A DNA stretch of 64,000 nt from an uncultured Actinomycetota bacterium (GTDB lineage: Bacteria; Actinomycetota; Actinomycetes; Mycobacteriales; Nakamurellaceae). Location of the stretch: positions 145,444 through 209,443 of the forward strand of contig CAWAVL010000014.1 in assembly GCA_963785455.1 (NCBI GenBank), written 5' to 3'. Each line of letters starts with the position of its first letter. Positions within the stretch are counted from its first letter, which is position 1. Positions 50,812 through 60,042 of the stretch are shown piece by piece. The notes below the pieces were generated by a model. That model had not been told where the DNA came from and made no database searches. It was given only the letters and a program-made list of their open reading frames with translations. The position numbers were made by a program, and so were the translations under genes.

Positions 50812-53800
50812 TCATCGGAAGTCCCGGGAGGGCGTGGTGGCCACCAGGTCGACCGCGGCGATCCGATCGGCGACGATCGAGATCGACCCACCGGCGCGCT
50901 CCACCACTCCCCGGACGACCAGCGACGGCGAGCCGCGCGCCACCCGCCGGTACCGCGACCACAGCCCGATGGAGCAGATGACGTTGATCATCCCGGACTC
51001 GTCCTCGAGGTTGATGAAGATGACCCCGGATGCGGTCGCCGGCCGCTGCCGGTGGGTGACCACCCCGGCGACCAGCACCCTGGTTCCGTGTTCCACCATG
51101 TGCAGGTCGACCGCCGTCCGCACCCCCCAAGCGGTGAGCGTCTCGCGGGAGAACTCGGTGGGATAGGTCTCCGGCGAGATCCCGGTGGCCCAGATGTCGG
51201 CGATGGTCAGCTCGATGTCGCTCATCCCGGGCAGCACCGGTGCGTCCAGACCGACGGTGCTGCCCGGCAGCGTGCCCGCGATGGGGCCGGCCGCGGCGCC
51301 CGCCGCCCAGAGCGCGCGTCGCCGGTCCTTGCCGGCCCGTGCCCGCATCCCGGTCAGCACGTCGAGGGCGCCTGCGGTGGCCAGCGCCTCCGCCTGTGGT
51401 GTGGTCAGCGTGACGGCCCTGGTGAGCTCATCCAAGGTCGGGTACCCGGCCGCGGGTCGACGGTCGACGATCTGCTCGGCCACCTCGGTGCCGATGGTCC
51501 GGATACCGGCCAGGCCGAGCCGCACCGCCGGTGCGCCGCCGGGCCCCGGCTCGAGATCGGCGTTCACGCCGGAAGAATTGACGTCCGGGCGGCGCACCGT
51601 CACCCCGTGCCGGCGGGCGTCTGCGACCAGGGACTGCGGGGAGTAGAAGCCCATCGGCTGGGCGCGCAGCAGCGCGGCGCAGAACGCGGCCGGGTGGTGC
51701 AGTTTGAGCCAGGACGAGTAGAACACCAGCGCCGCGAAGGACAACGCGTGCGACTCGGCGAACCCGAAGTTGGCGAACGCCAGCAGCCGCTCGTAGATCC
51801 GGTCGGCGGTGTCACCGGTGAGGCCGTGCAAGGTACGCATCCCGTCGTACAGCCGGCCCTTGAGCTTCTCCATCTTCTCGCCGGAACGTTTGGCGCCCAT
51901 GGCCCTTCGCAGCTGGTCGGCGCCGCCGGCGTCGAACCCGGCGACGTCGACGGCAAGCTGCATGAGCTGCTCCTGGAACAGCGGGATACCGAGCGTCTTC
52001 TCCAGGGACCGCTTCATCACCGGGTGGTCGTAGGTCACCGGTTCCTCGCCGTTGCGGCGGCGGATGTAGGGGTGCACGGAACCGCCCTGGATGGGGCCGG
52101 GGCGGATCAGCGCCACCTCCACCACGAGGTCGTAGAACGTGCGCGGCTTGAGCCGGGGCAGTGTCGCCATCTGTGCCCGGGATTCCACCTGGAACACCCC
52201 CACCGAGTCGGCGCGGCGCAGCATCTCGTACACCGCGGGCTCCTCCAGGTCCAATTGCGCGAAGTCGACGTCGATTCCCTCGTGCTCGCGCACCAGGTCG
52301 ACGGCATAGTGCAGGGCGGAGAGCATGCCCAGACCCAGCAGGTCGAATTTCACCAGGCCCATTGCGGCGCAGTCGTCCTTGTCCCATTGCAGCACCGAGC
52401 GGTTCTCCATTCGACCCCATTCCACCGGGCACACCTGGGCCACCGGCCGGTCGCAGATCACCATTCCACCGGAATGGATACCCAGATGCCGGGGAAAGTC
52501 CTGAATCTGCGCGGCGAGGGCCAGGACGTCCGCGGGAATGGGGTGCTCGATGCTGCCACCCCCGGAGGTGGCCTCCTTGATCTGCGCGGCCAGCGGTGAC
52601 CAGCCGTCGAGTTGTTTGGAGTAGGCGTCCTGCTGGCCGGGTGAGTGACCGAGCGCCTTGGCCATGTCCCGGACCGCCATTCGCGGACGAAACGTGTTGA
52701 CGTTTGCTACTTGTGCGGCATATTCGCGGCCGTACCGCTGGTAGACGTACTGGATGACCTCCTCGCGGCGGTCGGACTCGATGTCGATGTCGATGTCCGG
52801 CGGACCGTCCCTTTCCGGTGCCAGAAACCGCTCGAACAACAATTGGTAACGCACCGCATCGACGGCGGTGATGCCCAACGCGTAGCAAACGGCGGAATTC
52901 GCCGCGGATCCGCGACCCTGACAGAAGATGTTTGCCCTACGGCAGAAATCGACGATGTCGTGGACGATGAGGAAATAACCGGGGAAATTGAGATCGGCGA
53001 TGATCTTCAATTCCTTGTGGATCTGCTCGTAGGCATCCGGCCGCTGCTCCGGGGTGCCGTACCGGGTGGCCGCGCCGGCCAGGGCGAGCTGCCGCAGATG
53101 GGAGTTCTCGTCGTGCCCCGGCGGCACGTCGTACGGCGGCAGTTGCGGCGCCACCAGGTGCAGGTCGAAGGAGCATTCCGCACCGATCGCGGCGGCGGTG
53201 GGCACGGCCGTCGGGTACCGGGCGAACAGTGCCGCCATCTCGGCGCCCGACCGCAGGTGCGCCCCCGCGCCGGGCGGCAGGAACGGGTCGGCCTCGTCCA
53301 GGCTGCGCCGTCCGCGCACAGCCGCCATCGCCGCCGCCACCCTGCTCGACGGTGGCGCCGCATAATGCGCGCCGGTGGTCGCGACGACCGGCAGGCCGAG
53401 TTCCGCAGCGAGGTCTGCGAGGGCGTCGTTGTCCTCGTCGTCGGTGGGCAGCAGTTGGGTGGTCAATTCCACCAGGACGTTGGCACGCCCGAACCGGTCC
53501 ATCAGGTCGCGGATCTCGGCTCGCGCCGCCGACGGACCGTACCGTGCGAGCGCCCGCCGGACGCGACCCTTGCGGCACCCGGTGAGGATCAGCCAGTGAT
53601 CTCCCGCCGCTTCGGCCAGGTCATCGAGATCGTAGACGGGGCGACCTTTCTCGCCGCCGTTCAGTTGGGCACGGCTGATCTGGGCGGACAGTCTGTTGTA
53701 CCCCTCCTGGCCACGGGCCAGGATCAGCAGGTGGTCACCGACGGGGTCGGCCACACCCATCTGGGGTTCGGGCAGGCCGAACGACAACTCCGCGCCGTAC

Positions 53801-54204
53801 AGCGTGCGCAGTCCGGTGTCGGCAGCCGCCTCGGCGAACCGGACGATGCCGTAAAGCCCGTCGTGGTCGGTGATGGCCAGGGCGTCCAGGCCCAACCGGA
53901 GGGCTTCGGCCACCAGCAGCTCGGGGGTGGAGGCGCCGTCGAGGAAGCTGAAGGCGGAGTGGCAGTGCAACTCCGCATAGGGCACCCGGGTGGCCAGATC
54001 GATCGGGCCGGTTGTCTCCACCACCGGTCGTTGCCGTCGCTGCGAGCTGGGGTATTCGATCGGTGCAGCGTCCGGGTCAGGTTCGGGACGGTCGTGACCC
54101 AGAGGCCGGAGCGGGCCGACGGGTCCCCGGCCGGGCCGCGGGGGTTTGCCGGACAGCGCCCGTTCCAGGTCTTTCCACGGGACGGCGGGGTTGGACCAGC
54201 CCAT
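50812..54204 (-). CDS. dnaE2: error-prone DNA polymerase III alpha
   Basis: PHP domain ELHCHSAFSFLDGAS, QGRGSAANS, PPDIDIDIE, RHLGIHSGG, KFDLLGLGML, OB fold with FINLEDESG. Confidence 0.97.
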   Translation of the reverse strand: MGWSNPAVPWKDLERALSGKPPRPGRGPVGPLRPLGHDRPEPDPDAAPIEYPSSQRRQRPVVETTGPIDLATRVPYAELHCHSAFSFLDGASTPELLVAEALRLGLDALAITDHDGLYGIVRFAEAAADTGLRTLYGAELSFGLPEPQMGVADPVGDHLLILARGQEGYNRLSAQISRAQLNGGEKGRPVYDLDDLAEAAGDHWLILTGCRKGRVRRALARYGPSAARAEIRDLMDRFGRANVLVELTTQLLPTDDEDNDALADLAAELGLPVVATTGAHYAAPPSSRVAAAMAAVRGRRSLDEADPFLPPGAGAHLRSGAEMAALFARYPTAVPTAAAIGAECSFDLHLVAPQLPPYDVPPGHDENSHLRQLALAGAATRYGTPEQRPDAYEQIHKELKIIADLNFPGYFLIVHDIVDFCRRANIFCQGRGSAANSAVCYALGITAVDAVRYQLLFERFLAPERDGPPDIDIDIESDRREEVIQYVYQRYGREYAAQVANVNTFRPRMAVRDMAKALGHSPGQQDAYSKQLDGWSPLAAQIKEATSGGGSIEHPIPADVLALAAQIQDFPRHLGIHSGGMVICDRPVAQVCPVEWGRMENRSVLQWDKDDCAAMGLVKFDLLGLGMLSALHYAVDLVREHEGIDVDFAQLDLEEPAVYEMLRRADSVGVFQVESRAQMATLPRLKPRTFYDLVVEVALIRPGPIQGGSVHPYIRRRNGEEPVTYDHPVMKRSLEKTLGIPLFQEQLMQLAVDVAGFDAGGADQLRRAMGAKRSGEKMEKLKGRLYDGMRTLHGLTGDTADRIYERLLAFANFGFAESHALSFAALVFYSSWLKLHHPAAFCAALLRAQPMGFYSPQSLVADARRHGVTVRRPDVNSSGVNADLEPGPGGAPAVRLGLAGIRTIGTEVAEQIVDRRPAAGYPTLDELTRAVTLTTPQAEALATAGALDVLTGMRARAGKDRRRALWAAGAAAGPIAGTLPGSTVGLDAPVLPGMSDIELTIADIWATGISPETYPTEFSRETLTAWGVRTAVDLHMVEHGTRVLVAGVVTHRQRPATASGVIFINLEDESGMINVICSIGLWSRYRRVARGSPSLVVRGVVERAGGSISIVADRIAAVDLVATTPSRDFR

Positions 54205-55796
54205 CAGTCGTACACCCCTTCGATGCTCCAGCCGTCGGGTGTCGACCGTGCGAGCACGGCCCTCCCGTCATCGATGACGAGCTGAACTCGCGCTCCTGCG
54301 GGTGCCCGGTCGCTCGACCACCAGCGCTCGTCGAGCAACCACGGGCCGGCCCACGCCTCGACCCGATGCCGGGTGTCGTGCACCAGCCAGGTCGGTGGTC
54401 CGGTCAGCAGGCCCCGGCCGGTGAGGTGCACCGGCCGCCCGTCGTCGTCGAGGACGGTGATCCTCTCCGGATCACCCAGCCTTGCCGGGGAGGGGGCCGG
54501 CAACGACCCGGGCCACGGATCGGAAGGCTCTCTGGCACTGACCTTTTCGTCTCCCCAGGGCACCAGCGTGACGCGGTCCGCGGGACTGCGGCCACCGGAT
54601 GGCACCGGCGCCAGCACCGACTCCGGACCGAGCAGACCCTGCACGCGGGCAAAGGCCCAACCGGCCCGCTGGTCGTCCTGCCCGTCGGAACCCCACAGCC
54701 CGTACTGGATGCGCCCGGCACCGAGCGCCTCGATCGGTTCCAGCGTCAGCCGGGTGATGGCGCCCGGTCCCCCGGCCGCGCTCATCCCCGGGACAGCGCC
54801 GGTACGACCGGCGGTGAGCCAACCGTCGAGTTGCCAGCGCAACCGGTCCGCGGTGGCCGCCGCGGTCAACGGCGCCGCGCACCGCCAGATCCTGGTGAGG
54901 GTGGCGTCCCGTTCGGTGACGGCGGTGATGGCCAGCCTGGTGCAGGCCAGACCGGCATCGGCGAGTCTGACGTGGAACCGCTCGGCCAGCGCCCGCGCCG
55001 CGAACGCGGCCGTGTCGACGCGTTCCAGCGGCGGATCACAGACCTGTTCCACGGTCAGCTCCTGCGGCAGTTGCCGCCGGGATACGCCACGTTCACCCAG
55101 TCCCCGGGCGAGCCGGTGGGCCTGCACACCATCGGCGCCGAACCGGGTCGCCACCTTTCCTTCGGGCAGTGCGGCGAAAGCCCCGGCGGTGGTGATGCCG
55201 AGGCGGATGAGCAGGTCGGTCAGCGCCGCGCGCTCCGGTGGGCTGATGGCCGGGTCCCGCGCCAGTTCGGTGATCGGCAACGGCGCGCAGAACGCGGCGG
55301 ATCCACCGGGCGGAACGATGGTGGCGCGGTGCGCGGCCAACACCGCAACGGGGAGCACGTCGGCGATCCCGACCGAGCATTCGATGTCCAGTGCCTCGAC
55401 GACGTCGACAATCCGCTCGGCGGCAGCGATCTCGCTGCCGAAATACCGCCGCGGACCGCGGGCGGGACACGCGACGACCCCGGACCGGAGGATCTCCACG
55501 GCGGGTGCGACGGATTCGACGGCAGCGGCCACCGGCTCGAAGAGGCGGCCGTCGCGATCGTGATCGACCTGGGCGATGAGCAGGTCTGGGCATCGCGATT
55601 GGGCATCCCGCCGCCGCTGGCCGACCGTGATCCCCTCCGCCCGCGCCGCCGCGGTGCAGGCCTGCACACGGTTCGCGTGGAAAACGGCAACCGGATCGCT
55701 CGCCGGCCGGCCGGCATGTCGGGCCGCCGCCACAGCCGGCCAGTCGGGGCACCAGACGACCAGCGTTCGGGCGCGTTCGTCGCGATCGGTGGTCAT
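54204..55796 (-). CDS. imuB: ImuB Y-family-like mutasome subunit
   Basis: LVVWCPDWP, QSRCP, FEPVAAAVE, C-terminal WAGPW..DERWW; TGATG coupling to dnaE2. Confidence 0.93.
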   Translation of the reverse strand: MTTDRDERARTLVVWCPDWPAVAAARHAGRPASDPVAVFHANRVQACTAAARAEGITVGQRRRDAQSRCPDLLIAQVDHDRDGRLFEPVAAAVESVAPAVEILRSGVVACPARGPRRYFGSEIAAAERIVDVVEALDIECSVGIADVLPVAVLAAHRATIVPPGGSAAFCAPLPITELARDPAISPPERAALTDLLIRLGITTAGAFAALPEGKVATRFGADGVQAHRLARGLGERGVSRRQLPQELTVEQVCDPPLERVDTAAFAARALAERFHVRLADAGLACTRLAITAVTERDATLTRIWRCAAPLTAAATADRLRWQLDGWLTAGRTGAVPGMSAAGGPGAITRLTLEPIEALGAGRIQYGLWGSDGQDDQRAGWAFARVQGLLGPESVLAPVPSGGRSPADRVTLVPWGDEKVSAREPSDPWPGSLPAPSPARLGDPERITVLDDDGRPVHLTGRGLLTGPPTWLVHDTRHRVEAWAGPWLLDERWWSSDRAPAGARVQLVIDDGRAVLARSTPDGWSIEGVYD

Positions 55797-57346
55797 GATT
55801 CGCCTGCTGCCTGGCACAGGGCGCTGACGGAGTCGGTGAGGTGGAAGGGTTCGCCTCGCCAGCCGGGTCGGATGAGGTCGGGGTGGTACGGGTCGGGGTC
55901 CAGGGGTGCGGGGTCCGGTGGTAGGGCGGGGTTGGCCGGGATGGGCACCCGGGTCGGGGTGCGGAACACCCATCCCCCTCCTCCGCCGCCGCCTCCGCCG
56001 CCGTCGCTGTGGGGGTGCTGGTCGGTGGGTTCGATGGTGAACCCGTCCTCGTGGACGGTCATGTGGTGGGCGCGGCACAGCAGGATCAGGTTGTCCAGGT
56101 CAGTGAGCCCGCCGTGCAACCAGTGCACGATGTGATGCGCCTGCAGGTGCAACCGCCGGTGACAGCCGGGGAACCGGCACCCGCCATCCCGGATCCGCAA
56201 CGCCCGCCGCAACGCCGGCGAGATCTTCCGGGTCTTACGCCCCAACCGCAGTTGCTCCCCCGGCACCGCGGAATTGATCAACGCCACCAACGCCGCGTCG
56301 CAGGCGATTCGCCGCGCGGTCGCGGTGTCCACCCCCGGGCCGTGCTCGATCCGGCACACCCCACCGGTCACACCGGGATCATCACCGGCCGCCGGGTCCA
56401 CGGCGGGGTTGGCAGTGGGTCCGGTCAGTGCGGCGGGGTCGGCGTGCAGCACCAGCAGGTGCCGGTCGTCACCGGAGGAATCCACCGGGCCCGCGGCCAA
56501 CGCGGTGTGCGCCAACGCCATCACCGCGTCCGCCTCCCACCCCGCACCCACCCGGCCGGCCGCACCGGTGTCGGGACCCGGACCTGGGCCGGTGGCGGGG
56601 TCGGTGGCGGGGTCGGGTGGGGTGTCCCGGGCGGCGGCCATCGTCAACGCCGCCACCAGCACCGCCCCCTCATCGGCGGGGAGCCGCGCGGTGAGCACCA
56701 GCATCCCGTCCTCGTCGAAGAACCACCGCGCCCGCCGCCGCGCCTGCTGATCCCGACCCGTCCCATCGACCTTGCGGTAGCCCCGCACCACCCGCTCCAA
56801 CTGCGCCGCGGTATGCACCAGCGCCTGCTCCAACAACGTCGCCTCCGGCACCCGGTCGGCGACCCGGGTCACCGCCCGCACCTTCGAATACGACAACCGG
56901 CCCGCGCACAACGCCTGCGCCAACAACGGCAACCCGGTCAACGCCGACGCCACCCGCACGTACTCCCGCGCCGCCCCCGGCGCCACCGAACACGCCCACG
57001 ACAACCAGTGCGCACACGACCGCACCCCCCACTGCGCCCACCCCTTCCGCCGGTCGAACTCGGCCACCAGCCCCAACCACACCCCCGTCGACGACGCCAA
57101 CGCCCCCGCCAACGCACAGATCCGCGACTCCAACACCCCCACCGGCACCACCACAACACCATCAGCACCCGACGCAGCACCGGGCGCAGCACCGGGCGCG
57201 GGCACCACCGGGATGGCCGCACCCGGCACCGGTGCCGACCCCCGCCGCCGCGGCGCGCTCTGCCACATCAACGACAGGTCATCACCATCGAAGTCGAACT
57301 CGCCGTCATCGCCGGCATGGAAGTCCACCACCATCACCCCACCCAC
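55793..57346 (-). CDS. DUF222 / HNH endonuclease (13E12-repeat-like) protein inserted between imuA and imuB
   Basis: EFDRRKGWAQWGVRSCAHWLSWAC and LSYSKVRAVTRVA (DUF222), ARRIACDA, LRIRDGGCRFPGC...AHHIVHWLHGG.TDLDNL.LLCRAHH..VH (Zn-HNH); start may be ATG 57334. Confidence 0.93.
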   Translation of the reverse strand: MGGVMVVDFHAGDDGEFDFDGDDLSLMWQSAPRRRGSAPVPGAAIPVVPAPGAAPGAASGADGVVVVPVGVLESRICALAGALASSTGVWLGLVAEFDRRKGWAQWGVRSCAHWLSWACSVAPGAAREYVRVASALTGLPLLAQALCAGRLSYSKVRAVTRVADRVPEATLLEQALVHTAAQLERVVRGYRKVDGTGRDQQARRRARWFFDEDGMLVLTARLPADEGAVLVAALTMAAARDTPPDPATDPATGPGPGPDTGAAGRVGAGWEADAVMALAHTALAAGPVDSSGDDRHLLVLHADPAALTGPTANPAVDPAAGDDPGVTGGVCRIEHGPGVDTATARRIACDAALVALINSAVPGEQLRLGRKTRKISPALRRALRIRDGGCRFPGCHRRLHLQAHHIVHWLHGGLTDLDNLILLCRAHHMTVHEDGFTIEPTDQHPHSDGGGGGGGGGGWVFRTPTRVPIPANPALPPDPAPLDPDPYHPDLIRPGWRGEPFHLTDSVSALCQAAGES

Positions 57347-57353
57347 CCATCAC

Positions 57354-57374
57354 TCGAACATGTGTTCGAGACTA
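57354..57374 (-). promoter_or_regulatory. LexA SOS box overlapping a -10 element, upstream of the HNH gene
   Basis: TCGAACATGTGTTCGA (57354-57369) matches actinobacterial TCGAAC-N4-GTTCGA; TAGTCT -10 on the minus strand at 57374-57369. Confidence 0.88.
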
Positions 57375-57469
57375 GCCCGGGGCACCGACAACGGCCATCA
57401 CACCGACGGCGGACTCGTTCGGACCCAGGCAGGCGACAGCCTCTTGACCGCCCGGGTCACGCAACCCGA

Positions 57470-57487
57470 GCGTTTCCGCGGAAACGC
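57470..57487. repeat. perfect 18-bp palindrome GCGTTTCCGCGGAAACGC, with a degenerate copy at 57600-57616
   Basis: Self-complementary by inspection; second copy CGTTCTCGCGGAAACGC. Confidence 0.85.
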
Positions 57488-57648
57488 CCCTCTTTCAAAA
57501 CGGCCGAGCAGGCGCACGACGACAGCTCCGGAAGCCATCACATCGGCGGCAACCTTCGCGGACACCTTCCCACCGCCGGGCCACGCGAGCGAACCGAAAC
57601 GTTCTCGCGGAAACGCGTCGCCACCAGTGAGGAAACCTCCCGGGACAG

Positions 57649-57682
57649 CGACATCACGGAACGGCGACATCACGGAACGGCG
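57649..57682. repeat. 16-nt tandem duplication CGACATCACGGAACGG x2
   Basis: 57649-57664 and 57665-57680 identical, followed by CG. Confidence 0.85.
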
Positions 57683-57873
57683 CCGTGGTGGATGATCTCG
57701 CGATGATGTGCAGCACCAGCGCAGCCATCCGCCAGGCGATGGTGGTGACCGGTACCGGCGTGGGTTCGGGATAGGTGAAGTCGATGATGAAATCGCCCGA
57801 GAAGCACTCCTATCGCTGAGTCCGTCCCACCGGGGGCACAGGTGGTTCTCCCAGTGCCAGCTCAGCTGCTGTG

Positions 57874-58593
57874 TCATCCGACATCCGCCACCGGCTCGTA
57901 GGTCTCCGGTGGCACGCGAGGTACGACCGGCGCCGGGGCGGCGGCGATCTCGACGGTGGTCCGCCCGGCCCGTAGGAGCAACACCGCCTGGTGCGTCCGA
58001 CCGGCCGCCGCGCCACGTCCGCCGACCTCCACCACCAGTTCACGGTCGCGGAGCCGGCCATGCCCCTGACCAAGGCCGGCCCAGCTGATCCAACGCGCGG
58101 TCAGCACCAGATCGGCGCCCGGCCACGGGCCCATCACGAGCAGAACAGCACCGCGTTGACGGAGCCGGCCGGTGAGCACCCGCTGCAGGGACGGGCTGGG
58201 CCGGGCGGTGGCGGGTAGTGCCACGGCGATCATGTCGACGCCGTCCACCAGGATCGACAACACCTGCAGTACATCGGGTCCCGGCTCGGGGATGACGACC
58301 ATCCGGTCCAGGTCGACGCCGAATTCCGCCGCAGCGGCCAACCCGACCCCGGGCATCCCGACCAGCGCCGCCCAGGCGTCGGGCGGTCCGGACAGCAGCG
58401 TGAACAGCAGGCTCGTCGCGCCGTGGCCGCGCACGCTGACCACCGATCCAGGTGCAAGACCACCGCGTGGCAGCACGGCGGCGAGCGGCGCGACCACCGG
58501 GATCACCCTGCCGGTCTCCGTGGCCGGTTCCGGGCTGACCGAGCCGATGCGGGAGCGCAACTCCTGCAGCACCTTGGCCCGGTCATCGAACAT
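57874..58593 (-). CDS. imuA: ImuA' (RecA/SulA-like) mutasome subunit
   Basis: LPRGGLAPGSVV, GATSLL, WAALVG, GVDLDRMVVIP.PG, RLRQRGAVLL; upstream of imuB-dnaE2 with SOS box. Confidence 0.88.
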   Translation of the reverse strand: MFDDRAKVLQELRSRIGSVSPEPATETGRVIPVVAPLAAVLPRGGLAPGSVVSVRGHGATSLLFTLLSGPPDAWAALVGMPGVGLAAAAEFGVDLDRMVVIPEPGPDVLQVLSILVDGVDMIAVALPATARPSPSLQRVLTGRLRQRGAVLLVMGPWPGADLVLTARWISWAGLGQGHGRLRDRELVVEVGGRGAAAGRTHQAVLLLRAGRTTVEIAAAPAPVVPRVPPETYEPVADVG

Positions 58594-58606
58594 GCGTTCG
58601 AGACTA
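58586..58606 (-). promoter_or_regulatory. LexA SOS box and -10 element over the imuA start (leaderless geometry)
   Basis: TCGAACATGCGTTCGA at 58586-58601; TAGTCT-N7-ATG(58593) on the minus strand. Confidence 0.88.
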
Positions 58607-58644
58607 GGTCCACGGGTCACGGCCTGGCAACCACAGCCGGAGAA

Positions 58645-59277
58645 CTAGAGAGTCGCGACCCATCGACGGAGCACCTCGGCGCCGGCATCACCGGATTTCT
58701 CCGGGTGGAACTGGGTCGCCGACAGCGGACCGTTCTCCACCGCGGCCACGAACCGGTCACCACCGTGCTCGGCCCAGGTCACCACCGGCGGCACGAACCG
58801 GCCGCCGGCCTCGAGTTCCCAGCGGCGCACGGCATAGGAATGCACGAAGTAGTAGCGGGTTTCGGGATCGGCGCCTTCGAACAGCACCGAGCCGGCCCCC
58901 GGTTCAACCGTGTTCCAGCCCATGTGCGGCACGATCGGCGCCTGCAGCCGTTCCACGGTGCCGGGCCACTCCCCCACACCGGCGGTCTCGACGCCGTGTT
59001 CCACGCCCCGGTCGAACAGGATCTGCATGCCCACACAGATGCCCAGCACCGGCCGGCCACCCGCGACCCGCCGGTCGATGATCCGCTGTCCGCGCACCGC
59101 CGACAGCCCCGCCATGCAGGCCTCGTACGCCCCGACACCCGGCACGACCAGGCCATCGGCGTTCAGCGCGGCATCGAAATCGTCGGTGACGACCACGTCG
59201 GCACCGGTCCGGCGCAGGGCCCGTTCCGCGGACGCCAGATTCCCCGACCCGTAATCCAGTACGACCACACCGCTCAT
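58645..59277 (-). CDS. hisH: imidazole glycerol phosphate synthase glutaminase subunit
   Basis: [41 protein letters not shown]. Confidence 0.97.
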
Positions 59278-59284
59278 CGATCCG

Positions 59285-59446
59285 TCACGACTCCCCGATC
59301 AACCACAGGATTCCGCCGACGATGCACCCGGCGGCGAAGACCCCCAACACCACGGCGGCAGGCACCGACTTCTTCCCCACCGACAGCACACCGCCCACCA
59401 GGAAACCGCCGACGGCCAGCAACAGGATCGGCAGGATCTGGCTCAC
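59285..59446 (-). CDS. 53-aa two-TM membrane protein in the his operon (absent from the ORF track)
   Basis: GTG overlaps the hisB stop (GTGA); [52 protein letters not shown]; stops 7 nt before hisH. Confidence 0.8.
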
Positions 59447-60042
59447 AGCACGCCCTTGGTCGACGGGATGCCCTGCACCCGTGGGTCCGGCTCCACCGCC
59501 TGCCGCAGCGCCCGGGCGATCGCCTTGTACTGCGCCTCGCAGATGTGGTGCGGGTCGCGCCCGTAGATCACCCGGACGTGCAGCGCGATCCGGGCGTGGA
59601 AGGCCAGGGAGTCGAACACGTGCCGGTTGAGCACCACCGGATAGTTGTTCCCGACGGTGAACCCGAGCACCGACTCCGGTTCACCGGTGTGCACCGAGAA
59701 CGGCCGCCCCGACACGTCGACCGCCGCATGCGCCAGCGTCTCGTCCATCGGGATGAAGGCATCACCGAACCGGCGGATCCCGGCCTTGTCGCCCAGCGCC
59801 TGACCGATCGCCTGGCCCAGCACGATTGCCGTGTCCTCCACGGTGTGGTGTGCGTCGATGTCGACGTCACCGACCGCGCGGACCGTCAGATCGAAATTGC
59901 CGTGTACCCCGAACGCGGTGAGCATGTGGTCGTAGAACCGCACCCCGGTGGAGATCTCGACCTTCCCGGTGCCGTCCAGGTTCAGATCGACCAGCACCGA
60001 CGATTCACTCGTCGCGCGTTCGATCCGGGCGTGGCGCTGCAT
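59443..60042 (-). CDS. hisB: imidazoleglycerol-phosphate dehydratase
   Basis: [39 protein letters not shown]. Confidence 0.97.

Follow-up and report, generated by a model that had tools for sequence, protein, structure and literature searches.

We identified a gene for an HNH nuclease of the DUF222 (13E12) type inside the imuA'-imuB-dnaE2 mutasome operon of Nakamurella, in a stretch of 64 kb from contig_4514 of the soil metagenome assembly ERZ25039483 (hereafter the window; WIN in comparisons). We consider it probable that this gene belongs to an ancient 13E12-type module which has been inherited vertically, whose regulatory parts have been co-opted by imuB and dnaE2, and which is still converting a second copy of itself. 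All coordinates are positions in the window, and all genes of the locus are on the minus strand; contigs of relatives used for comparison are numbered L001 and so on, and P0001 is the best protein match. The interval is organized as follows:

57874-58593, minus strand: imuA' (239 aa from ATG 58593; ORF, open reading frame, as listed 57874-58620, 248 aa from GTG; NCBIfam NF058630 ImuA', E = 1.1e-46).
57347-57873, minus strand: spacer of 527 nt without coding signal (GC flat at ~0.65 over all codon positions in all six frames).
55793-57334, minus strand: DUF222-HNH nuclease gene identified by Pfam (513 aa from ATG 57334; 517 aa from GTG 57346).
55793-55796, minus strand: ATGA stop/start overlap of the HNH gene and imuB (HNH TGA 55793-55795, imuB ATG 55794-55796).
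54204-55796, minus strand: imuB (Pfam IMS domain; orthologues found).
50812-54204, minus strand: dnaE2 (Pfam PHP, DNA_pol3_alpha, finger, HHH_6 and OB domains).

The mutasome gene set is present, with ImuA' recognized by NCBIfam, the inactive Y-family protein ImuB by the Pfam IMS domain and DnaE2 by the DnaE domains of Pfam. The contiguity of imuA' and imuB that belongs to such a cassette is lacking here, as the two genes are 2.08 kb apart. What the initial annotation had seen at this locus, working from the sequence alone, was correct in every particular: ORFs and Pfam verify both the intact DUF222-HNH gene and the separation of ~2.08 kb, and the overlap of the HNH TGA with the imuB ATG (ATGA) can be read directly in the sequence. 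The next junction is similarly tight, the dnaE2 ATG and the imuB TGA sharing 1 nt.

A survey of the genus, with few named species among the genomes listed, covered at least 14 occupied loci and three loci lacking the HNH gene (L008-L010). In all of the HNH-bearing loci listed, the gene is preceded by imuA', in some cases accompanied by DinB_2 and PafC, and followed by imuB. These loci are the window, L001, L003 (N. leprariae), L004 (N. antarctica), L005-L007 and seven metagenome contigs, and they share the arrangement imuA'-(PafC-like WYL / DinB_2)-HNH-imuB-dnaE2. The stop/start overlap with imuB is kept in every occupied locus, as ATGA in the window, L001, L003 and L005-L007 and as a 1-nt overlap in N. 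antarctica (L004). Outside the genus, no DUF222/HNH match was found within ±8 kb of 74 imuB loci (Rhodococcus, Nocardia, Mycobacterium, Pseudonocardiales, Lentzea and others). In these genera imuA' adjoins imuB directly; the extrapolated gap has a median of -24 nt (73 of the 74 loci, those where both genes were found).

The HNH proteins linked to imuB, together with three unlinked copies nested among them, form a single clade with 100% bootstrap support, and the other DUF222-HNH proteins fall outside it. Pairwise identity of the HNH proteins follows the order of imuA' and of the species, with 73-83% within the group of the window, 60-65% to L005, 57% to L003 and 47-50% to L004. Synonymous divergence (dS) of the HNH gene is 0.50-0.67 vs 0.57-0.9 for the flanking genes. 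The ratio of nonsynonymous to synonymous divergence (dN/dS) is ~0.3 for HNH, 0.16 for imuA' and 0.08 for imuB, and the HNH ORF is still under purifying selection. Taken together, these comparisons indicate that the module entered the junction in the common ancestor of Nakamurella and was inherited vertically from then on.

The module also occurs as near-identical copies at a second site. P0001 is encoded on L165 (contig_4477), another contig of the source assembly of the window, with an unrelated 320-aa gene on one side and a convergent sensor/response-regulator gene on the other. Positions 7930-9582 of L165 align to window positions 57406-55783 and the flanks are unrelated, which delimits the following feature:

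55786-57406, minus strand: HNH module, a gene-conversion tract comprising promoter, ORF and 7 nt of imuB, with near-identity to the second copy L165.

One substitution marks each edge of the tract and three more are internal, and the copies further differ by two indels, one of 1 nt in the 5' leader and one of 30 nt that is in frame; 4 substitutions and both indels fall within 55786-57406. In the Logan contigs of a soil-metagenome run that holds the window, one unitig corresponds exactly to 55786-57339 and has a depth of 23, with flanks at a depth of 8-14.5. Loose ends are found at 55786 and 57406, and the end at 55786 matches the L165 flank; this one sample contains the module in both its contexts. 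As judged from these boundaries, promoter and ORF form a discrete module of ~1.6 kb.

The same second site is occupied in L002, L169/L170 and L171. In the closest relative, L167 (6192-6738) and L168 (4644-5094), it holds a decayed remnant consisting of a hairpin (described below), codons ~64-122 and the last ~10 codons; ~1.2 kb is deleted and the promoter is lost. Because of this remnant the second site is taken to be old and the paralogue to be losable. Three pairs of operon and second-site copies were compared:

WIN and L165: identity 99.8%, tract 1621 nt, start 16 nt upstream of TGTCGG, end 7 nt past the stop.
L001 and L171: identity 99.4%, tract 1713 nt, start ~110 nt upstream of TGTCGG, end 0 nt past the stop.
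L007 and L169-L170: identity 99.7-99.9%, tract (L170) 1633 nt, start 46 nt upstream of TGTCGG, end 4 nt past the stop.

Between species, all HNH copies differ by 14-24% at the nucleotide level. Two of the second-site copies end in bases with which the local imuB begins (ATGA-CCACCGA and ATGA-ACGC), and since these bases are derived from imuB, the operon copy must have been the donor in these two cases. The pattern points to recurrent, recent and directional gene conversion from the operon to the second site in three species. An unlinked copy at a third site (L087/L088) is not homogenized. The source assembly ERZ25039483 holds at least two distinct Nakamurella populations (L170, contig_11496, and L165, contig_4477), and the assignment of contigs to genomes needs care.

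Each of the two predicted transcription units of the locus starts with a LexA (SOS) box. The promoter elements are:

58601-58606, minus strand: -10 hexamer TAGTCT of the imuA' promoter, its final T being the first base of the LexA box; same layout in relatives.
58586-58601, minus strand: LexA (SOS) box TCGAACGCATGTTCGA of imuA', 0 mismatches, enclosing the probable ATG.
57369-57390, minus strand: PafBC motif, also termed RecA-non-dependent promoter (RecA-NDp) motif, TGTCGGTG-N8-TAGTCT of the HNH promoter, with the -10 at 57369-57374.
57354-57369, minus strand: LexA (SOS) box TCGAACACATGTTCGA of the HNH-imuB-dnaE2 unit, 0 mismatches.

Only two perfect TCGAACnnnnGTTCGA boxes occur in the 64 kb, at 57354-57369 (HNH) and 58586-58601 (imuA'), and at two or fewer mismatches the window has 7 matches vs 2.7 expected. 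TAGTCT abuts each of the perfect boxes on the 5' side, so the SOS box and -10 attributed earlier to the HNH gene itself are both there. The PafBC motif was defined as 22 nt with 5' TGTCGG and a TAnnnT -10 (PMC8682763); TGTCGGTGCCCCGGGCTAGTCT at 57369-57390 is the sole match without mismatch in the window. The HNH promoter carries both motifs, with the RecA-NDp motif fused to the LexA box. Of the two boxes, the imuA' gene of Nakamurella has just that for LexA, and imuB-dnaE2 have their PafBC box on the HNH module.

The RecA-NDp box and -10 precede HNH in nearly all Nakamurella copies, linked and unlinked. Most relatives also have a LexA box upstream of HNH, whether the copy is linked or unlinked; in the L005 group this box is degenerate. 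That the same promoter accompanies the unlinked copies agrees with the proposal of the initial annotation that the insertion brings its own damage-responsive promoter. Among unlinked family members in metagenomes, 12/57 have a LexA box just upstream vs 0 in control segments, and damage control is for this reason likely to be a recurrent trait of the DUF222-HNH family. The identity of the two promoters of the locus over 22 nt was weighed as evidence of a promoter duplication and found unpersuasive: the LexA box accounts for 16/22 nt and the -10 for the remainder, and unlinked members are arranged alike. A scan for consensus promoters and terminators gave no match; such a consensus scan is uninformative for actinobacterial promoters. 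RNA runs contain only 5-6% of the words of the window, and the runs holding the sequence are metagenomes.

The true start of imuA' is probably the ATG at 58593 (58591-58593), inside the LexA box, which would make the listed 248-aa ORF 9 codons over-long; gene callers also begin imuA' at this ATG, giving 239 aa. As implied by a start codon within the LexA box, the imuA' mRNA is probably leaderless or near-leaderless. The transcription start of M. tuberculosis Rv3395c was mapped inside its SOS box (PMC3381160). The imuA' product of relatives carries PF27531 (MT3502_N).

The three loci without the HNH gene form a natural deletion series, and all of them have kept the RecA-NDp box. L008 has an internal deletion of ~1.4 kb which leaves the RecA-NDp box, the LexA box and the 5' end of HNH; a mini-ORF of 48 codons remains, its TGA still overlapping the imuB ATG (ATGA). 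Neither L009 nor L010 has imuA' nearby: the RecA-NDp and LexA boxes stand directly upstream of imuB in L009, and in L010 imuB is preceded by the RecA-NDp box together with an N-terminal HNH motif (MDDWGPEEWAVAWQGAP). By imuB identity these loci are nested among HNH-bearing lineages and represent at least two independent losses of HNH (L008/L009 and L010), with imuB-dnaE2 intact. Because of these losses the body of the nuclease seems dispensable for keeping imuB-dnaE2; the promoter is retained, and in L008 the predicted coupling as well. From the survival of the promoter in the HNH-less lineages, and in L008 of the start and the ATGA too, imuB-dnaE2 appears to depend on the regulatory parts of the module. 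Neither L008 nor L167/L168 qualifies as a true empty site, since remnants of the module persist in both. In L009 (4748-5538, 6142-8092; a Nakamurella metagenome-assembled genome), imuB-dnaE2 adjoins a vapBC pair and the imuB ORF has an N-terminal extension of ~50 codons.

The 527 nt between imuA' and HNH had been described as a repeat-rich spacer. Its length and noncoding nature were confirmed; rather than anonymous repeats, it holds a DinB_2 pseudogene and hairpin segments:

57672-57880 (approx.), minus strand: DinB_2 pseudogene, found by tblastn with the intact DinB_2 of L001 and L003 and by DNA alignment with L001, L006, L007 and L104.
57470-57487, minus strand: conserved hairpin GCGTTTC-CGCG-GAAACGC upstream of the HNH promoter, a perfect palindrome of 18 nt with central CCGCGG.
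57599-57616, minus strand: degenerate hairpin copy GCGTTTCCGCGAGAACGT in one copy of a ~130-nt segment that occurs twice.

The pseudogene has lost its start region and, by an internal deletion, ~70 codons; it also carries a frameshift and a tandem duplication of 16 nt (57651-57682). An intact DinB_2 gene is present at the same place, between imuA' and HNH, in L001, L003, L006, L007 and L104, and N. antarctica (L004) and L008 are entirely without it. The ORF at 57398-57877 (159 aa, with an ATGA overlap with imuA') was rejected as a gene, as it shows flat GC content at third codon positions and no Pfam match and corresponds to the frameshifted DinB_2 relic. In N. leprariae (L003, 4196-5182) a divergent gene for a PafC-like regulator with helix-turn-helix and WYL domains lies between imuA' and DinB_2, an arrangement that places a WYL-type damage regulator beside a promoter with a PafBC box.

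The rest of the spacer includes two copies of a ~130-nt segment, each with the hairpin GCGTTTC-CGCG-GAAACGC. One or two copies of the hairpin usually lie upstream of HNH modules, at the operon and at second sites alike (L001 1802/1964; L004 5478/5579; L002 5793/5860; L165 7709), and it is not a general repeat of the window. In an alignment of 11 copies from linked and unlinked modules, 96% of positions are paired, three pairs show compensatory changes, and the G·U pairs are compatible with the sense strand only. A U-tract is missing from the hairpin, and the interval between imuA' and HNH yielded no canonical terminator. The hairpin may act in termination or insulation, stabilize RNA, or serve as a site for a protein or the nuclease. 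An Rfam scan of 55000-59500 (E <= 1) gave only two sub-threshold chance matches and no known RNA in the spacer.

The protein encoded by the HNH gene has the features of the 13E12/DUF222-HNH family: a DUF222 domain, a C-terminal HNH domain with its Cys and His residues, and multiple copies with gene conversion. DUF222 (PF02720) spans residues 87-387 (E = 6.1e-21, 75.5 bits vs a cutoff of 24.4) and HNH (PF01844) is matched with E = 2.5e-6 (27.9 bits vs a cutoff of 21.4). The zinc/catalytic motif CxxxxC...HH...N...CxxHH...H is intact in the window copy. Residues C390, C395, H404, H405, N419, C424, H427, H428 and H432 are invariant in an 8-sequence alignment (A2), and in a 66-sequence alignment (A3) the same residues are invariant except H404 and H427 (at least 90%). 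Sequence and fold searches of PDB matched only the HNH segment (EcoKMcrA, IscB, Cas9 HNH, Gme nicking HNH). For the helical DUF222 part the fold search detected no structural relative, giving only spurious matches resembling G protein-coupled receptors, with a model of moderate confidence (predicted local distance difference test, pLDDT, 74). An RNA-guided nuclease of the IscB type was rejected, since NCBIfam IscB scores 20 bits vs a cutoff of 175 over the HNH segment only and Rfam has no match in 55000-59500. PADLOC gave no match to a defence system.

The start of HNH is more likely ATG 57334 than GTG 57346, because gene callers choose the ATG and because, with the GTG, the 1-nt indel of the paralogous copy at 57340 would shift the frame. 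The 30-nt in-frame indel at 57238 separates two otherwise identical HNH copies, and a stretch of 10 Gly codons (55968-56003) that follows the HNH domain varies in length among orthologues. In the 5' third of the gene (56600-57400) GC skew reaches -0.39 and AT skew +0.53 on the plus strand, the coding strand being G/T-rich, a skew far stronger than in the neighbouring genes. Upstream of imuA' lies a further gene:

58645-59277, minus strand: hisH.

The explanation that we favour starts from a module made up of one or two hairpins, a PafBC (RecA-NDp) box fused to the -10, a LexA box and an ORF of 513 aa. This module would have been acquired at the imuA'|imuB junction by the ancestor of the genus, splitting the ancestral cassette into two damage-inducible units. 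The first would consist of imuA', once followed by DinB_2, with a LexA box only and a probably leaderless mRNA. The second would comprise HNH-imuB-dnaE2 behind the dual PafBC/LexA promoter of the module, chained by stop/start overlaps. Upon DNA damage, cleavage of LexA and activation of PafBC would fire the module promoter, and ribosomes ending HNH translation at the UGA may restart at the overlapping AUG of imuB, and likewise from imuB to dnaE2. The host would by now rely on the promoter and the coupling of the module. As to the protein itself, we lean towards a nuclease or nickase, induced by damage, whose role would be to promote recombination at its own copies and not to serve as a dedicated subunit of the mutasome.

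Several points weigh against this explanation. Promoter use, read-through from imuA' and translational coupling are deduced from sequence only, and the activity of the nuclease and its part in the conversion events are likewise predictions. As the hairpin has no U-tract and a canonical terminator was not found, transcription from imuA' may continue into HNH, and the module promoter would then be redundant in part. That the HNH-less lineages still have the promoter could be due to chance in the placement of their deletions. Finally, each conversion pair is assumed to lie within one genome, on the grounds of three concordant pairs and shared samples.

In the initial annotation the gene had been likened to a homing endonuclease that inserted into the imuA'-imuB junction and was tolerated by restoring promoter and coupling. 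A recent event of this kind would fit a discrete module with its own promoter, the near-identical second copies, which show that the module can still be copied, and the contiguity of imuA' and imuB in other actinobacteria. Yet the gene is present at the same site throughout the genus, with amino-acid identity down to 47%, which had been named in advance as the finding that would speak against recent mobility. Because of this shared position, and because both the phylogeny and dS are congruent with the neighbouring genes, a recent or homing insertion is refuted. The HNH dS equals that of the flanks, and the comparison of the HNH gene with other copies, suggested as a check, left the linked copies (with the three nested unlinked ones) monophyletic. 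Neither precise empty sites nor phylogenetic incongruence with the flanks at the operon site was found among the loci of the genus; the only "empty" alleles that the suggested synteny survey brought up are internal deletions retaining the module ends, and these are derivatives of the occupied locus rather than virgin target sites. We regard a recent insertion as very improbable. It is barely credible that the near-identical second copies are assembly artefacts, that is, collapsed or mis-joined metagenome repeats without real concerted evolution. All sequences come from metagenome assemblies and several Nakamurella populations share samples, but the three pairs are independent, stem from different assemblies and have different tract ends, the copies differ by a few single-nucleotide polymorphisms and the in-frame 30-nt indel, and separate unitigs and loose ends support both junction contexts in the independent Logan assembly.

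The alternatives that accept an old module concern what it does. The nuclease could have been recruited as a partner of the mutasome, for instance to nick damaged DNA and provide gaps for DnaE2, with the operon keeping expression stoichiometric. The ORF was kept intact for the lifetime of the genus with invariant catalytic residues and a dN/dS of ~0.3, the stop/start coupling to imuB is strict in all occupied loci, and co-regulation is predicted by the same two damage pathways that act on the mycobacterial mutasome (PMC8682763). Against such a role, the gene was lost at least twice (L008/L009; L010) with imuB-dnaE2 intact, the cassette does without HNH in the 74 loci of other genera, the identical protein and promoter at an unlinked second site suggest that the function is not specific to the operon, and selection is more relaxed than on imuB (0.3 vs 0.08); we judge recruitment unlikely. 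The module could instead be a purely selfish passenger, with read-through from imuA' driving imuB-dnaE2, a redundant module promoter and incidental retention of that promoter in HNH-less lineages. The spacer offers no canonical terminator and no U-tract at the hairpin that would contradict this, and 13E12 elements have been considered insertion-like repeats (PMC3381160). However, imuA' is missing upstream in L009 and L010, which leaves the module promoter as the sole recognizable damage promoter for their imuB. L008 kept promoter, start and ATGA overlap through a deletion of ~1.4 kb, and the hairpin is conserved with compensatory changes, so that a mere passenger is distinctly unlikely. It is a long shot that the HNH protein cuts or nicks at or near its own module after damage, possibly at the hairpin, and so sets off the directional conversion by which the copies stay identical, its breaks or gaps also feeding the co-translated ImuA'-ImuB-DnaE2 and forming a "cut-and-mutate" unit; if true, such a unit would give the 13E12 family a first function.

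The ancient, co-opted module that we prefer resembles several known systems in part. With the mycobacterial cassette (Rv3395c-Rv3394c, Rv3370c) it shares orthologous imuA', imuB and dnaE2 genes, an imuA' start inside the LexA box, and LexA and PafBC motifs that parallel the dual control of mycobacterial imuA'/B by LexA and PafBC (PMC8682763). In contrast to that cassette, imuA' and imuB of Nakamurella are 2.08 kb apart, the PafBC box is on the HNH module and not upstream of imuA', and imuB and dnaE2 stand in one overlap-coupled unit with a nuclease gene. The 13E12/REP13E12 genes of M. tuberculosis (Rv0515, Rv0336, Rv1702c, Rv2100, Rv1588c) are likewise multi-copy genes encoding DUF222, many with a C-terminal HNH domain; they are bound by LexA or have a RecA_NDp, or both (PMC3381160), and the REP13E12 loci are hot spots of recombination with gene conversion between copies (PMC13061034, PMC13157036). 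Unlike these genes, the Nakamurella copy is fixed in the mutasome operon throughout the genus, overlaps imuB, appears to supply the promoter of the operon and acts as the conversion donor to a second site. REP13E12 is further marked by an embedded phage attachment (attB) site.

Free-standing HNH homing endonuclease genes (phage I-HmuI, mobE-like) similarly sit as a unit of promoter and ORF between operon genes that are both intact, and the Nakamurella module, like them, spreads to a homologous locus by gene conversion. It differs from them in the absence of precise empty sites, in its vertical inheritance at the operon site and in that conversion takes place between two paralogous sites which are already occupied. 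To our knowledge the DUF222 domain has no counterpart in characterized homing endonucleases. As an analogy only, the HO endonuclease of mating-type switching also combines a nuclease with recurrent directional copying between loci; HO is a domesticated homing endonuclease driving directional gene conversion. The HNH protein has a different nuclease fold and belongs to a different domain of life, and for it a part in making the initiating break would be hypothetical.

The ImuA'-ImuB-DnaE2 mutasome drives induced mutagenesis and drug resistance. The 13E12/DUF222-HNH genes, for which we know of no function, are among the most damage-induced and most recombination-prone loci of M. tuberculosis. 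That 13E12 genes are damage-induced and prone to conversion, and that the mutasome is under LexA and PafBC control, is already known. We found no published description of an HNH gene within the imuA'-imuB-dnaE2 operon, and what is new here is the stable fusion of both systems, the apparent regulatory take-over, the natural deletion series and the operon copy as donor in several species. Nakamurella thus offers a natural experiment in which nuclease and mutasome genes are fused genus-wide, physically and, as the overlaps suggest, translationally, with a built-in deletion series (full gene, mini-ORF, promoter only) and a paired second copy that records recent conversion. In cultivable, non-pathogenic species, the effect of the nuclease on induced mutagenesis, its own gene conversion and the take-over of host operon regulation by a selfish module can be tested. 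Even if the nuclease is irrelevant to the mutasome, the locus would represent a case in which a mobile-type element has captured the regulation of a core DNA-damage operon.

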